Both the position numbers and the translations under genes were made by a program. DNA of 52,984 nt from an uncultured Nitrospiraceae bacterium (GTDB lineage Bacteria; Hydrogenedentota; Hydrogenedentia; Hydrogenedentales; SLHB01). Below the pieces are notes generated by a model. The model was not told the origin of the DNA. It searched no databases and saw only the letters and a program-made list of their open reading frames with translations. Shown here piece by piece: positions 502 through 6,357 of the stretch. The stretch is taken from NCBI GenBank assembly GCA_964493915.1, contig CAZBQH010000254.1, positions 1 to 52,984 on the forward strand, given 5' to 3'. Each line of letters starts with the position of its first letter. Position 1 is the first letter of the stretch.

Positions 502-2247
502 TCAAGGGCCGATGCCGCCTTGCGCGTCTATAGCGCGCAAGGCGTCGCCGATCCATGCAAGAATCTGGGCTGAAGCATCCTGGACAGGCATAAGGCCCGA
601 TTCCTTTGTGTCGCGGCGTTTCCATTCGAAGAGGCCGTTGCGCAGGTTGCGCTCGGCCACGATGATGCAAAACGGTATGCCGAGCAGGTCTGCATCAGCG
701 AACTGAACACCCGGGCGCTCGTCGCGGTCGTCAAAGAGGACCTCGACGCCGGCGTTTTGCAGTTCGCTGTAAAGGGTATCGGCCGCGTTTTTCACCGCCT
801 CGTTCTTCAGCTTAAGCGCGTTAAGGTGCACCTGCCAAGGCGCAACCGAAATGGGCCACCGAGGCCCGAACTCGTCATGGTGCGCCTCCATGATTGAGCT
901 CATCAGGCGGCCGACGCCGATGCCGTAACAGCCCATGACAGGGGCATGGGATGCGCCCGACTCGTCGTTGTAAGTCATTCCCATCGCTTCGGTGTACTTG
1001 CTGCCAAGCTGGAAGATGTTCCCAACCTCGATGCCTCGGTTGAAAACGAGGGCTCCCTTCCCGTCAGGGCTTCCGTCGCCTTCCCGGGCCTCGACTACGT
1101 CCACCGTCTCGGTACCCGGGAGATCGCGTTCCAGATTGAAGTTCTTGTAGTGGTAGTCGACTTCGTTAGCGCCCGTGACAAGATTGTTCGACGCCTTCAC
1201 GGTATGGTCGACGACGATGCGCCACTTGCTCTGGTCGAGTCCCAAAGGCGATGCAAAACCCGGCTCAGCGCCCGCCGCCCGAATACGGGCTTCGGAGGCC
1301 GGTTCAGGGAATGTCTTTAAAATGCCAGCAAGCTTCGCCTCGTTTACGTCCCGATCGCCCCGGACTACAACCAACACGACTTTCCCCTCGGCATCGTGAT
1401 CGTAGAACACTGCCTTGGCCGTCTGACGCGTTTCAACTCCCAGGTAACCGGCGACCTCCTCGATGGTCTTGCAGTCAGGCGTGTGAACCTTCTCGAGGGG
1501 TTTGACTTCTTCAGGAAAAGCCTGCACGACGCCCTGTGCCACTTCGAGGTTGGCAGCATAGCCGCTTTGGTCGCTCATCACGATGGTGTCCTCTCCGACC
1601 TCTGTGAGCAGCACAAACTCATGCGCCACGCTGCCCCCCATCATGCCCGTGTCCGACTGAACGGCAACCACTTCAGGCACGCCCGTCCGGACGAAAATGC
1701 GCTGGTAGGCTTCGAAACACAGGCGATAGTAGCCTTCGAGGTCCTCGCGGGAAACGTGGAAGGAATAGGCATCTTTCATCGTGAACTCGCGGACGCGGAT
1801 GAGACCGCCGCGCGACCTCGGTTCATCTCGGAACTTGGTCTGGATCTGGTAAACCATAAACGGAAGCTGCGCATGGCTGCTTATCTCATTGCGGCAAAGG
1901 TGAACAACGGCCTCTTCATGGGTCATGGCAAGCACCATACCGTGGCCCGTGCGGTCGTTGAAGCGGGCAAGCTCGGGACCAACAGCAGCATACCGCCCCG
2001 ACTCGTCCCATAGCTCGCGGGGTTGAACCACGGGCATCAGAACTTCCTGGCCTCCGATGCGGTCCATCTCCTCGCGAATGATGCGCTCAATCTTCCGTAC
2101 AACGCGCAGCCCCGGCGGAAGAAGCGAGTAGATGCCGTTGGCTACCTGGCGCGCATAACCGCCCCGCAGTAGAAAGGCATGGCTGTTGAGCGCGGCCTCG
2201 GCCGGCCGCTCTTTGTATCGCATGCCCAGTAGTTGAGTCATTCGCAT
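502..2247 (-). CDS. proS: Prolyl-tRNA synthetase (bacterial type with INS editing domain)
   Basis: GIYSLLP, QIQTKFRDEPRSRGGLIRVREFTMKDAYSF, GIEVGNIFQLG, MGCYGIGVGR, anticodon domain DDRDERPG; start moved to MRMTQLLG (ATG 2247, GGAG upstream). Confidence 0.98.
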   Translation of the reverse strand: MRMTQLLGMRYKERPAEAALNSHAFLLRGGYARQVANGIYSLLPPGLRVVRKIERIIREEMDRIGGQEVLMPVVQPRELWDESGRYAAVGPELARFNDRTGHGMVLAMTHEEAVVHLCRNEISSHAQLPFMVYQIQTKFRDEPRSRGGLIRVREFTMKDAYSFHVSREDLEGYYRLCFEAYQRIFVRTGVPEVVAVQSDTGMMGGSVAHEFVLLTEVGEDTIVMSDQSGYAANLEVAQGVVQAFPEEVKPLEKVHTPDCKTIEEVAGYLGVETRQTAKAVFYDHDAEGKVVLVVVRGDRDVNEAKLAGILKTFPEPASEARIRAAGAEPGFASPLGLDQSKWRIVVDHTVKASNNLVTGANEVDYHYKNFNLERDLPGTETVDVVEAREGDGSPDGKGALVFNRGIEVGNIFQLGSKYTEAMGMTYNDESGASHAPVMGCYGIGVGRLMSSIMEAHHDEFGPRWPISVAPWQVHLNALKLKNEAVKNAADTLYSELQNAGVEVLFDDRDERPGVQFADADLLGIPFCIIVAERNLRNGLFEWKRRDTKESGLMPVQDASAQILAWIGDALRAIDAQGGIGP

Positions 2248-2310
2248 GAAAACGGATCTCCGCACACGTATCCCCCATGGCCAAGCGGTTGTTCAAACAA
2301 GTGCGGCGCG

Positions 2311-2340
2311 AGCATACCTTCCTCTGTCCCGAAAAGGCAA
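2311..2340 (-). promoter_or_regulatory. Putative sigma-70 promoter of proS
   Basis: TTGCCT-N18-TATGCT on minus strand. Confidence 0.45.
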
Positions 2341-2455
2341 CTGAGAAACGCTGAAAAAGGGAGAGCGAAGGGGTCGCACAAGGGTGATCTGACAGCCGGG
2401 AAGGGTGTGTAAGTCTTTTTGCAGCAACCGGTTGTTATACATTCTGATTACATGC

Positions 2456-2484
2456 TTGACACAGGTCTCTTCTTGTGCTATAAA
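2456..2484 (+). promoter_or_regulatory. Near-consensus sigma-70 promoter of the microprotein gene
   Basis: TTGACA(2456-2461)-N17-TATAAA(2479-2484) with extended -10 TG. Confidence 0.8.
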
Positions 2485-2563
2485 CCGCCCGTTTTGTCTT
2501 AGAGGCGTTTCGGAATCAATGAAGGCTAGACACCCTGCAAACGGAAAGGAGGTGACCTTCGGA

Positions 2564-2698
2564 ATGCGCTGCGCATTGTGCAATGAATACATCGAGCCCA
2601 TCGAGCTCGAACTGGGCGATGCCAAGATCGTAGACGGCGAATACTGGCATACTGATTGCTACGCCGAGTATTACGACGAGGAGCTCGCAGAAGCCTAA
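2564..2698 (+). CDS. 44-aa acidic microprotein, putative zinc finger (CxxC...HxxC)
   Basis: MRCALCNEYIEPIELELGDAKIVDGEYWHTDCYAEYYDEELAEA; RBS AAAGGAGGT about 10 nt upstream; own promoter. Confidence 0.8.
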   Translation: MRCALCNEYIEPIELELGDAKIVDGEYWHTDCYAEYYDEELAEA

Positions 2699-2893
2699 CG
2701 GCCCACACCGCCACCCGAACGCTTACACCTCAGGCGGACAGGCGCCCCGCCGGAGGTTTTCCCTCTCGAGGTTCTCCCTCCAGAATCATGCAGACCAGGA
2801 AACCTTTCCCTACCCGATGGGGATTGTCCCCAAGGAACTCAGGACCAAGGGACAGGGCAACGTCGTGCGTCGTCTTCCCATTCCATGAGACTC

Positions 2894-2922
2894 TGCATTT
2901 CCACTCTGCGTTTTGCTATACT
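2894..2922 (+). promoter_or_regulatory. Putative promoter of accA operon
   Basis: TGCATT-N17-TATACT with extended -10 TG; weak -35. Confidence 0.45.
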
Positions 2923-3059
2923 AAGTCGCTCTTGCGATAACCAACGAGCGTCCCTGCCCTTTGAAGTTTGCTGTGCGGCAGGAAATCGCGGGCTGACTTC
3001 ATGTTTTTCTGGAGCGTGGGCGGCGAACATTCGGAACACCCCTCGGGAGACCGGAGCAC

Positions 3060-4043
3060 TTGGCTGAGAATAAAAAGAGGTCGCGGCCTTTGCTTGAGCA
3101 GTGTTTGCCTTTCGAGCGACGGATTATCGAGCTTGAAGACCGCCTTGAACGGGCAGAAACAGACCCGGAACGGGAGACCATCCAGGTTGAACTGGACCGC
3201 GAACGGGAAGCCGTGTTCTCGAATCTGACGGCTTGGCAACGGGTGCAGTTGGCTCGGCATCCGCTCCGGCCGCGAATGCTCGATTACACTTCGCGTATCC
3301 TCGAGGACCTCTTTGAGCTGCACGGCGACCGTTACGCCGGCGACGACCCTGCAATGGTCTGCGGCTTGGGGCGCTTTCGTGGAAAGACGGTCATGGTCGT
3401 AGGCCAGCAGAAAGGCGTGACAACTGAAGAAAAGGTGACCCGCAATTTCGGCATGGCGCACCCCGAGGGTTACCGGAAGGCCTTGCGCATGTTCAAGCTC
3501 GCAGAGCGCATGAAGATTCCGGTGGTCACCTTTGTAGATACGCCTGCAGCCCATCCCGGCATCGAGGCCGAAGCACGCGGCCAAGGTCCGGCTATTGCTC
3601 AAAATCTCTACGAAATGATCCGCCTGAAGACCCCCATATTCTGCGCAGTTCTGGCGGAAGGAGGCAGCGGCGGCGCGCTTGGCATTGCCGTAGGCGACTG
3701 GATCGTGATGCTTGAACATGCGATCTATGTCATTTGTCCGCCCGAGCGATGTGCGGAGATTCTCTGGAGGGACGTCGAGAAGAAAGAGATGGCGGCTTCG
3801 GCCATGCGGGTGACGGCCCAGGACCTGCTGCGTCTCGGGGCAATCGACAAGGTGCTCGAGGAACCCCCGGGCGGCGCCCACCGCGATCCTGACGCTGTTG
3901 CAGCAACTCTTGCGGAGGAGTTGGACGTGTTCCTCTCCGACTGTGCTAAGGGCCGGTGGTCGCCCGAGAACCGTCAACGCAAGTTTCGCAAAATGGGAGT
4001 TTGGCGTGAAAATGGACGCCCCAAGACCTCTCCAGATTCGTGA
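3060..4043 (+). CDS. accA: Acetyl-CoA carboxylase carboxyltransferase alpha subunit
   Basis: LTAWQRVQLARHP, GDDPAMVCGLG, NFGMAHPEGYRKA, EGGSGGALGI. Confidence 0.97.
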   Translation: MAENKKRSRPLLEQCLPFERRIIELEDRLERAETDPERETIQVELDREREAVFSNLTAWQRVQLARHPLRPRMLDYTSRILEDLFELHGDRYAGDDPAMVCGLGRFRGKTVMVVGQQKGVTTEEKVTRNFGMAHPEGYRKALRMFKLAERMKIPVVTFVDTPAAHPGIEAEARGQGPAIAQNLYEMIRLKTPIFCAVLAEGGSGGALGIAVGDWIVMLEHAIYVICPPERCAEILWRDVEKKEMAASAMRVTAQDLLRLGAIDKVLEEPPGGAHRDPDAVAATLAEELDVFLSDCAKGRWSPENRQRKFRKMGVWRENGRPKTSPDS

Positions 4044-4326
4044 CGGGGTGGTCTATATGCATCTGAAGGTGCAGCCTAAGGCATCGCGAAATGCAGTTGC
4101 CTTCGGACCGGATGGGTCGATCCGGATAACGCTTACCGCCCCTCCGATGGAGGGAACGGCCAACCAGGCGCTGACCCTGTTTCTGGCAAAAACGTTGGGG
4201 GTGCCTAAGAGCGCCGTGACGCTGGTCAAAGGCCAGAAGTCGAGAAACAAGACCGTAACGATAAAAGATCTGACATTGGAAGAAGCGGAGAAGCGGCTCG
4301 GCTCGCAAGCTGTTCGGAGGATGTAA
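4012..4326 (+). CDS. yggU: DUF167/YggU family protein
   Basis: LKVQPKASRNAV, LTAPPMEGTANQAL, LVKGQKSRNK; start ATG 4012 (GTG 4006 possible). Confidence 0.88.
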   Translation: MDAPRPLQIRDGVVYMHLKVQPKASRNAVAFGPDGSIRITLTAPPMEGTANQALTLFLAKTLGVPKSAVTLVKGQKSRNKTVTIKDLTLEEAEKRLGSQAVRRM

Positions 4327-4336
4327 GGAACTATTC

Positions 4337-5164
4337 ATGTCGGAGCTGCGGCAAAGAATCAGCGAAGCGACAAACAGTATCAAAACCAAGTGCAGTTTTG
4401 AGCCTCACATAGGCGTCATCCTCGGGACAGGGCTGAATGCGCTGGCCGAGCGCATTGACATCAAAGAACGAATCAGCTACGAGCATATCGCCCACTTTCC
4501 TGAAGCGACTGTGAAAGGACACGAGGGCGGCCTGATCATGGGGGACCTCGCGGGGAAACCCGTAGTCGCAATGGCCGGCCGATTTCACGCCTATGAAGGT
4601 TACACCCTCGAGCAGGTAACGTTCCCGGTGCGCGTTGCGAAAGCTCTGGGCGTCCGCACGCTGGTGGTGTCTAACGCGGCGGGGGGTCTCAACCCGGATT
4701 TTAGAGCGGGCGATCTCATGTTGATTACGGATCACATCAATTTTATGGGAGACAACCCGCTTATTGGTCCGAACGACGACGAACTGGGTCCCCGCTTTCC
4801 CGATATGAGCGAGCCGTACTCTAAAGATCTGATCGAGCTGGCCGAAGCAGTTGCTCTCGAGAAGAGGATTCGCCTCCGGCGCGGGGTTTATCTGGCCTGT
4901 CCGGGGCCCTCGCTGGAAACACGGGCTGAGTACCGGATGATGCGCGCTTTCGGAGCAGACGCTGTGGGAATGAGCACGGTTCCCGAGGTGATTGTTGCCG
5001 TGCATGCCGGTCTGAAGGTGCTTGGCTTCTCCGCCATTACGGATGAATGCTTGCCTGATGCCCTCGAACCGGTCCACATTGAGAGAATCATTGCAACAGC
5101 AAATCGTATTGAACCCGTTCTTACGGAGATTATTGAGGCCGCCGTTGAAAGAATGCCTGACTGA
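4337..5164 (+). CDS. punA: Purine nucleoside phosphorylase (trimeric type)
   Basis: GVILGTGL, GRFHAYEGY, SNAAGGLN, GPSLETRAE, VGMSTVPE. Confidence 0.95.
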   Translation: MSELRQRISEATNSIKTKCSFEPHIGVILGTGLNALAERIDIKERISYEHIAHFPEATVKGHEGGLIMGDLAGKPVVAMAGRFHAYEGYTLEQVTFPVRVAKALGVRTLVVSNAAGGLNPDFRAGDLMLITDHINFMGDNPLIGPNDDELGPRFPDMSEPYSKDLIELAEAVALEKRIRLRRGVYLACPGPSLETRAEYRMMRAFGADAVGMSTVPEVIVAVHAGLKVLGFSAITDECLPDALEPVHIERIIATANRIEPVLTEIIEAAVERMPD

Positions 5165-5190
5165 CAACCCAAGCAAAGGGAAGGACTAGA

Positions 5191-6357
5191 TTGAACGCAC
5201 AGAAAAACAACCAGAAAGCCAGAGCGTACGAGGCGCCATCGCGCGGCGAGGAGGAAGACCGCCAGTCCAGCGCCGCAAAGCCTTCCCATATCTACGAGGC
5301 GGCTTTGGGCGGTCCTCTGATAGTCAGACTTATCCGCGCTCTTTTCGTCGTGGCATGCATCATTATGGGCGTATTGTGGGCCCACTACATTCTAAGCAGC
5401 TACAACGAAACGGCCGCCACGCCGCTTAACGCGCTTCCCTGGCAAATCCTGGGCGGGCTTGCCGGCTGCATCGCGGCGCTGCTGGTCCTGTTTCTGTTGC
5501 AGTTCATCAACCAGGAACTGTTCGAGCGCCTCTCCCCTGCCATGGTGGCTATCGTATTGGCCATGGTCATGGGCTATTTCATTGGGCGCTACATCGTCCA
5601 CTGGATCCCGGGCGCCGATCCCACCCTCCAGGTTTTCATCATTACGACGCTCGTTCTGCTTTTTGGCTTTGCCGGCATTTTTCTTGGGTTGACCCGGGCC
5701 TCGAATTGGGAGTCGCTCATCAAGGCGGTGCGCCATCGCAATTTCGAACACAGAGCCCCAAAACTGGTAGACACAAGCGTCATTATCGACGGCCGCATTA
5801 CCGACATTTGCCAGACTGGATTCATCGAAGGAACGCTGCTGATTCCCCGCTTTGTTCTCAAGGAACTGCAAAGCATCGCCGACTCTTCGGACGTGCTGCG
5901 GCGGGCGCGCGGGCCCCGCGGCCTCGACATCGTGCGGCAGCTTCAAGATGGACAAATGCCCGCCGCTGTCGAGGTAATCGATGACGACCCAACGGATGTC
6001 CAGGAAGTGGCCGGCAAACTTGCCAGCCTGGCGCGCGAGTTTGGGGCAAGCATCGTTACAAACGACCTCAACTTGAACAAGGTGGCCCAGATCGAGGGCG
6101 TAACCGTCCTGAACATCAACGACCTCGCCAATGCCCTTAAACCGGCCGTCTTACCGGATGAGCATATGGAGGTGAAGATCGTCAAGGAAGGCAAGGAAGC
6201 CCTGCAAGGCGTGGGTTACCTTGACGACGGGACCATGGTGGTGGTCGACGGCGGAAAGAGTTATGTGGGGCGTGACGTCAGCGTCGTCGTGACAAGCGTG
6301 CTGCAGACGACTGCCGGCCGCATGATCTTCACGAAGCTCGAGGGCATCCTCTCCTGA
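5191..6357 (+). CDS. yacL: Membrane-anchored PIN/TRAM domain protein (YacL-like)
   Basis: N-terminal TM helices; VDTSVIIDGRI, KELQ, VTNDLNLNKVA, GVGYLDDGTMVVVD, SVLQTTAGRMIF; classic position before ispD-ispF. Confidence 0.93.
   Translation: MNAQKNNQKARAYEAPSRGEEEDRQSSAAKPSHIYEAALGGPLIVRLIRALFVVACIIMGVLWAHYILSSYNETAATPLNALPWQILGGLAGCIAALLVLFLLQFINQELFERLSPAMVAIVLAMVMGYFIGRYIVHWIPGADPTLQVFIITTLVLLFGFAGIFLGLTRASNWESLIKAVRHRNFEHRAPKLVDTSVIIDGRITDICQTGFIEGTLLIPRFVLKELQSIADSSDVLRRARGPRGLDIVRQLQDGQMPAAVEVIDDDPTDVQEVAGKLASLAREFGASIVTNDLNLNKVAQIEGVTVLNINDLANALKPAVLPDEHMEVKIVKEGKEALQGVGYLDDGTMVVVDGGKSYVGRDVSVVVTSVLQTTAGRMIFTKLEGILS

Follow-up and report, generated by a model that had tools for sequence, protein, structure and literature searches.

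A single-copy, highly acidic microprotein of the phylum Hydrogenedentota with a predicted treble-clef zinc finger and conserved expression signals

INTRODUCTION

The LIM domain (PF00412; PDB 2d8y, 3ixe, 2co8) is a eukaryotic module of two contiguous zinc fingers that places eight ligands within about 55 residues, and its first finger follows the consensus spacing C-x2-C-x16-23-H-x2-C. Another eukaryotic finger, the C-terminal CCHC finger of Pcf11 (PF21936; PDB 2nax, 5m9z), is a domain of a large mRNA 3'-end processing factor. Zinc fingers that stand alone as microproteins are already known as a kind. In Bacillus subtilis, CsfB (Gin) is a treble-clef zinc anti-sigma factor of 64 aa (PDB 5n7y), and its flexible C-terminal tail becomes ordered on binding to sigma E (PMC5890618). 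The archaeon Haloferax volcanii has one-domain zinc-finger micro-proteins of the C(P)XCG type, which are shorter than 70 aa, lineage-restricted and mostly of unknown function (PMC6562870, PMC10716476, PMC11241148).

Here we describe a protein of 44 residues that is encoded in a 52,984-nucleotide stretch of DNA (contig CAZBQH010000254.1 of assembly GCA_964493915.1) from an uncultured bacterium of the Hydrogenedentota; this whole stretch is called the window below. We know of no well-studied cultured member of this phylum. A literature search on this protein family in the Hydrogenedentota and on bacterial LIM-like fingers returned nothing specific. An earlier, sequence-only reading of the window had proposed that the gene encodes an abundant, uncharacterized zinc-binding microprotein, perhaps a regulator or a metal store. 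Our analysis places the protein in a new, as yet unnamed family, and we discuss which of the functions open to such a small protein are compatible with its conservation, its predicted fold and its genomic setting.

RESULTS

The gene and its start codon

The features of the locus are the following (window coordinates).

2456..2461, + strand: -35 hexamer TTGACA; most of the 59 distinct leaders of orthologues have TTGAC[AT] in this position
2476..2484, + strand: extended -10, TGcTATAAA (TGc 2476-2478, TATAAA 2479-2484), separated from the -35 by a 17-nt spacer
2491..2563, + strand: 5' leader of about 73 nt, with its putative start about 7 nt past the -10
2544..2555, + strand: Shine-Dalgarno sequence GAAAGGAGGTGA, 12 nt, 8 nt to the ATG
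2564..2698, + strand: coding sequence (P0001), 44 aa plus stop, for the predicted C2HC treble-clef zinc-finger microprotein
2728..2760, + strand: intrinsic-terminator-like hairpin (2728-2756, about -15 kcal/mol) followed by TTTT (2757-2760)
3060..4043: accA

The open reading frame begins with the ATG at 2564 and ends with the TAA at 2696-2698 (MRCALCNE...EELAEA). Its product contains the candidate zinc ligands C3, C6, H29 and C32 in the arrangement CALC-x22-HTDC, with an acidic tail after them, and proS (502-2265, minus strand) is oriented divergently from the gene. Coordinates and translation bear out what the sequence-only reading had said on each of these points. The protein collection also holds a 59-aa form (P0002). 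In many orthologues an in-frame stop lies 2 to 5 codons 5' of the ATG and the distance from the Shine-Dalgarno sequence to the start is kept; hence the start of the 44-aa form is the correct one and not that of P0002. The frame is a real gene, and both frame and start are established.

Expression signals

Hand scoring over the whole window gave the promoter 11 of 12 points plus the extended TG, a combination that no other site in the window has. This agrees with the earlier claim that the window's best sigma-70 promoter (TTGACA-17-TGcTATAAA) and a ribosome-binding site drive the gene, and we found, in addition, that these signals are conserved across the phylum. A promoter scan that demands T as the last base of the -10 made no call here, a miss that this requirement explains. 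The combination TTGACW-N13-15-TGNTATAA occurs once in the window versus not at all in 100 shuffles, and seven times in the 5.6-Mb genome versus once for the reversed control; one of the seven precedes a tRNA gene. The 12-mer GAAAGGAGGTGA has six copies in the genome versus a control count of 0, and one of them lies before rplI. Another 44-codon open reading frame (MRRMDERGNL...) is found 5 nt behind one of the six copies (minus strand of contig C308 in G000, L117) and may be a second small gene.

When 79 distinct 200-nt regions upstream of orthologues were compared with TTGACA-N16-18-TATAAT, 62 reached a score of 9 of 12 or more, and nearly all of these have the TG extension; most orthologous leaders read TTGAC[A/T]-17-TGnTATAA[G/A]. 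The -10 ends 79 nt before the ATG here and mostly 58 to 85 nt before it in orthologues, and GAAAGGAGGTGA or a one-base variant of it stands 6 to 9 nt before the start in nearly all 81 orthologous loci. The last base of the -10 in the 59 orthologous leaders is G (47 leaders), A (11) or C (1), and never the canonical T. In the orthologous promoters the discriminator, the six bases past the -10, has a G+C content of 73% versus 46% in the remaining leader. The TGnTATAAG ending and the G+C-rich discriminator may reflect a preference of the phylum's sigma-70 or a stringent-type control. The sequence of the promoter spacer is not conserved among orthologues. A hairpin is frequent in the 5' leader (z < -1 in 26 of 59 leaders) without being significant, and an Rfam scan of positions 2150-3150 at E values up to 1 gave no match. 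The 16S rRNA, sought in this genome for the anti-Shine-Dalgarno sequence, was not assembled.

The terminator hairpin, which the sequence-only reading did not include, has 9 pairs, is G+C-rich and begins 30 nt past the stop codon. A hairpin with a T-run follows within about 130 nt of the stop in 70 of the 81 loci, mostly ending 50 to 100 nt after it, and many of these are textbook terminators. The conservation of promoter, Shine-Dalgarno sequence and terminator in most orthologous loci argues that the gene is a monocistronic unit. Judged by these signals, it is probably highly expressed.

Distribution and sequence conservation

The host genome carries a single copy of the gene. Six-frame searching detected it in 33 of 41 relatives, and the family profile retrieved it from 101 of 135 Hydrogenedentota genomes, always as a single copy and in 14 of the 15 families. 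It was not found in the other 34 genomes, and since two of these (G018 and G024) are 100% complete, the gene is dispensable in some lineages. There was no match outside the Hydrogenedentota among 185,579 species genomes. Some contigs are titled 'uncultured Nitrospirales/Nitrospiraceae' or 'Rhodothermaeota' in NCBI; these titles are unreliable for taxonomy. Two of them were checked, and the loci (L042 and L095) are identical to contigs C186 of G031 and C755 of G078, genomes that GTDB places in the window's order. We infer that the NCBI titles suggesting an occurrence outside the phylum are mislabels.

Across 68 distinct sequences of the family C3, C6, N7, W28, H29, C32, E35 and Y36 are invariant and L5, E8, E26 and E42 nearly so. 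The gap between CxxC and HxxC is 22 or 23 residues across the family. In close pairs of genes up to 42% of the synonymous sites differ with zero amino-acid change. Pooling 16 close pairs, which are not independent of one another, gave 108.5 synonymous versus 21.5 nonsynonymous differences and a pN/pS of 0.043, the lowest of the six frames. The sequence-only reading had made its case depend on homologues that keep the four ligands and on a dN/dS ratio away from 1; such homologues exist, with all four ligands invariant, and the pooled ratio in this frame is far from 1. Going by these substitution patterns, the whole peptide is under strong purifying selection. The protein has a net charge of -11 (family median -12, range -17 to -7), and its only basic residues, R2 and K21, are both unconserved in the family. 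Most members keep the C-terminal end [L/F]-E-x-[V/A].

The gene is indeed uncharacterized, as the earlier reading had it, and belongs to no Pfam or NCBIfam family. Searches of NCBIfam and PADLOC gave no match, PHROGs gave a single match of unknown function (E = 0.13), and the ESM Atlas returned only clusters of 'hypothetical protein', which is also what the microprotein is called in the sources that name it at all. A search of 1.84 billion representatives yielded about 20 small relatives. No fused or longer form was found in these searches apart from one protein of 97 aa, which is probably an over-long gene call. Several metagenomic proteins of 200 to 450 aa (P0003, P0018, P0021, P0023 and P0027) consist of 3 to 8 tandem half-LIM-like units with the pattern C-P-x-C-G ... 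G-x-x-W-H-x-x-C-Y, and some of them have zinc-ribbon ends or a match to Prok-RING_1.

Predicted fold and structural relatives

AlphaFold2, run with the 68-sequence alignment, produced a model with a pLDDT of 88 overall and 94-95 at residues 1-30. In this model C3 and C6 form a knuckle in the first turn, which is followed by a short helix (residues 12-16), a hairpin (residues 20-29, with strands 20-23 and 26-29) and a helix (residues 30-41) that begins at H29/C32; the final residues are disordered. A knuckle, a beta-hairpin and a helix whose N terminus supplies ligands are the elements of a treble clef, and all three are present in the model. The predicted fold is thus a treble-clef zinc finger similar to the first half of a LIM domain. 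The treble-clef or LIM-type zinc site proposed from the ligand pattern, for which structure prediction had been named as a check, is upheld at the level of a predicted fold by the AlphaFold2 model, the partial Pfam LIM match and Foldseek.

The matches to known structures are weak and identify the generic fold only. Foldseek against the PDB ranked the Pcf11 CCHC finger at the top (TM 0.53-0.54), followed by many LIM first fingers, with a best E value of 0.25 and no match at E <=0.001. A VIA-align comparison with 48,161 chains placed CsfB and a plant RING finger together at the top (Z 3.8), followed by other RING fingers and the zinc-binding domain of ClpX, and no chain in it reached Z 5. These structural neighbors (LIM, RING, the ClpX domain and CsfB) all have treble-clef folds. 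Searching PDB sequences with the family profile returned LIM and Pcf11 only, at E values of at least 0.011. The Pfam LIM model aligned over its positions 1-27 of 58 with 15.2 bits (E = 0.027), below the gathering cut-off of 22.9 bits.

The spacing C-x2-C-x22-H-x2-C lies within that of the LIM first finger, with which the microprotein also has the motif W-H-x2-C-[Y/F] in common, and its model superposes on such fingers with an rmsd of 1.2-1.5 Å over 31 residues. However, the microprotein has four candidate ligands in its 44 residues, and past C32, where a LIM domain has its second finger, it has a 12-residue helix and an acidic tail without Cys or His. Moreover, LIM fingers are eukaryotic, whereas the microprotein is bacterial, stand-alone and extremely acidic. 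We do not assign it to the LIM domain, because it shares only the spacing of the first finger, has one finger instead of two and stays below the Pfam cut-off. The Pcf11 finger has the same order of ligands and the motif aromatic-H-x2-C-Y-x-E in common with the microprotein, but the match is nonsignificant (E 0.25; Pfam E 1.7) and the domain is eukaryotic. The Haloferax C(P)XCG proteins are likewise single-finger and lineage-restricted; they differ in being archaeal and in having two C(P)XCG knuckles of the zinc-ribbon type. The motifs of the microprotein are CALCNE and HTDC rather than two C(P)XCG, and there is no sequence similarity, hence it is not of the Haloferax type.

Gene neighborhood

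The gene accA lies on the same strand 140 to 474 nt downstream (median about 300) in 50 of the 77 loci with enough downstream DNA, and 2.5 to 3.1 kb away in 4 further loci. Five loci without accA still have the gene before DUF167-PNP-PIN-IspD, which links it to a conserved gene-order block and not to accA itself; in other loci serA or a Cys/Met PLP enzyme comes next. In the window this block, whose gene order is conserved across the phylum, occupies positions 3060-6357 and beyond with accA, DUF167 (YggU), a purine-nucleoside-phosphorylase-family gene, a PIN-domain membrane protein and IspD, and the microprotein gene marks the 5' edge of the accA-IspD block. An extended -10 without a good -35 (TGcTATACT, 2914-2922) is located about 140 nt before the accA start, past the microprotein terminator, and is a possible accA promoter. 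The upstream neighbor varies, with alaS or an Exo_endo_phos gene in other loci. The sequence-only reading had looked to synteny with proS and accA for support. Its proS part did not stand, as proS is the neighbor in only 1 of the 81 loci compared, that of this genome; its accA part stood as a common arrangement and failed as a functional link, given the phyletic pattern described below. At E <= 1e-20, accA was not detected in 37 of the 135 Hydrogenedentota genomes; several of these are nearly complete, and all 10 genomes of family f13 are among them. The usual AccA-type carboxyltransferase may be missing from part of the phylum.

DISCUSSION

Why would most members of a phylum keep a gene for such a small protein? 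We favor, with a probability of about 0.55, the explanation that it is a monocistronic housekeeping gene whose very acidic 44-residue product folds round one zinc and acts by protein contact. C3 and C6 of the N-terminal knuckle, together with H29 and C32 at the start of the C-terminal helix, would bind zinc 1:1, and the expression signals suggest that the microprotein is abundant. The acidic helix (residues 30-41) and the free C terminus [L/F]-E-x-[V/A] would then dock onto a basic surface of a partner with a housekeeping function, and the microprotein would serve as a small regulatory or adaptor subunit. The charge of -11, the lack of any conserved basic residue, the conserved E8, E26, E35 and E42 and the C-terminal motif argue for binding to protein rather than to nucleic acid. 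Several points weigh against this explanation: the structural matches are weak, the gene was not found in 34 of the 135 genomes, there is no fusion, operon partner or co-occurring gene that points to a target, and most of the invariant residues (W28, Y36 and N7) could be purely structural.

The nearest working model for an action by protein contact is CsfB, taken as a likeness of mechanism rather than of membership. Both are stand-alone bacterial microproteins, with a treble-clef finger (predicted, in our case) and a flexible C-terminal tail; in CsfB, a protein that binds sigma G and sigma E, the tail takes part in partner binding together with the finger. However, CsfB has four Cys ligands instead of C2HC and forms a homodimer specific to sporulation; it matches our model weakly (Z 3.8, rmsd 1.9 Å over 37 residues, 11% identity), and there is no detectable sequence relationship. 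We also put forward, tentatively, a more specific idea. The microprotein might be a phylum-specific, abundant acidic subunit or regulator of the core machinery, a zinc finger that mimics DNA or RNA and occupies the surface with which RNA polymerase, a sigma factor, a nucleoid protein or the ribosome binds nucleic acid, and its GC-rich discriminator might tie its level to the growth rate.

Could the metal itself be the purpose? In other bacteria, abundant zinc-ribbon ribosomal proteins are thought to act as zinc reserves. The microprotein could by analogy buffer or store zinc, or act as a switch that senses zinc or redox state, holding or releasing the metal as supply or thiol oxidation dictates. 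In favor of this are its one Cys3His site and the expression signals, which predict abundance. Although this is the main rival explanation, we consider it unlikely. One zinc per 44 residues makes a poor store, no operator is visible in the near-consensus promoter, where the sequence of the spacer is unconserved, and metal binding alone does not need the conserved acidic residues and the C-terminal motif. The earlier suggestion of a metal store therefore finds little favor in our data. Its other suggestion, a regulator, fares no better if taken to mean a protein that binds nucleic acid. Many small zinc fingers do bind DNA or RNA, as a regulator resembling Halobacterium Brz or Ros/MucR would. 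Brz is a small zinc-finger regulator whose gene adjoins that of its target (PMC2253796). A function of this sort is highly improbable for a protein with a net charge of -11 whose sole basic residues, R2 and K21, are not conserved.

The position of accA directly downstream on the same strand in many loci invites the idea that the microprotein is an accessory or regulatory subunit of the carboxyltransferase (AccA/AccD) of acetyl-CoA carboxylase, for example the equivalent of a detached AccD zinc finger. The phyletic pattern contradicts it. Of the 10 genomes in family f13, 9 have the gene and none has accA, five f1 genomes (G002, G014, G106-G108) have the gene without accA, and at least 9 genomes, including G017, G018, G024, G019 and G012, carry accA but lack the gene; the DNA upstream of accA in three of these 9 or more genomes contained no diverged copy of it. 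In 70 of 81 loci the microprotein gene is followed by a terminator of its own, and the host AccD keeps its own zinc ribbon: a genome-wide search for the AccD finger (PF17848) matched AccD itself (28.1 bits, contig C127) and not 2564-2698, and a Pfam scan of the microprotein found no PF17848. A role in acetyl-CoA carboxylase, which we deem very unlikely, is largely refuted, and the gene is independent of accA. We give least credence to the idea that the reading frame is the leader peptide of a transcription attenuator controlling the downstream genes. The layout is classical, with a promoter, a short open reading frame, a terminator 30 to 60 nt past the stop and biosynthetic genes next to it. 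However, the whole peptide is under purifying selection and has a confidently predicted fold, it contains no regulatory codon runs, and the downstream gene differs by lineage (accA, DUF167, serA or the Cys/Met PLP enzyme). In addition, 100 to 400 nt separate the terminator from the next gene, and here this interval holds the separate extended -10 at 2914-2922. In an attenuator leader it is translation, and not the product, that controls a fixed operon; here the product is selected and the operon varies, so we do not class the gene as one.

In summary, our work describes a new, unnamed family in an already known kind of protein, the stand-alone zinc-finger microprotein. The family stands out in being retained across the phylum, in being extremely acidic and in having conserved expression signals that are close to maximal. 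The gene is single-copy, is kept by most genomes and has expression signals that are among the strongest of its genome, hence its product probably ranks among the more abundant proteins in these cells. The protein is small enough for chemical synthesis, which makes its zinc binding, structure and partner directly testable. The conserved promoters offer an initial picture of the sigma-70-type consensus in this phylum, TTGAC[A/T]-17-TGnTATAAG, and with this family the growing list of 'half-LIM' fingers that stand alone would gain a bacterial example.
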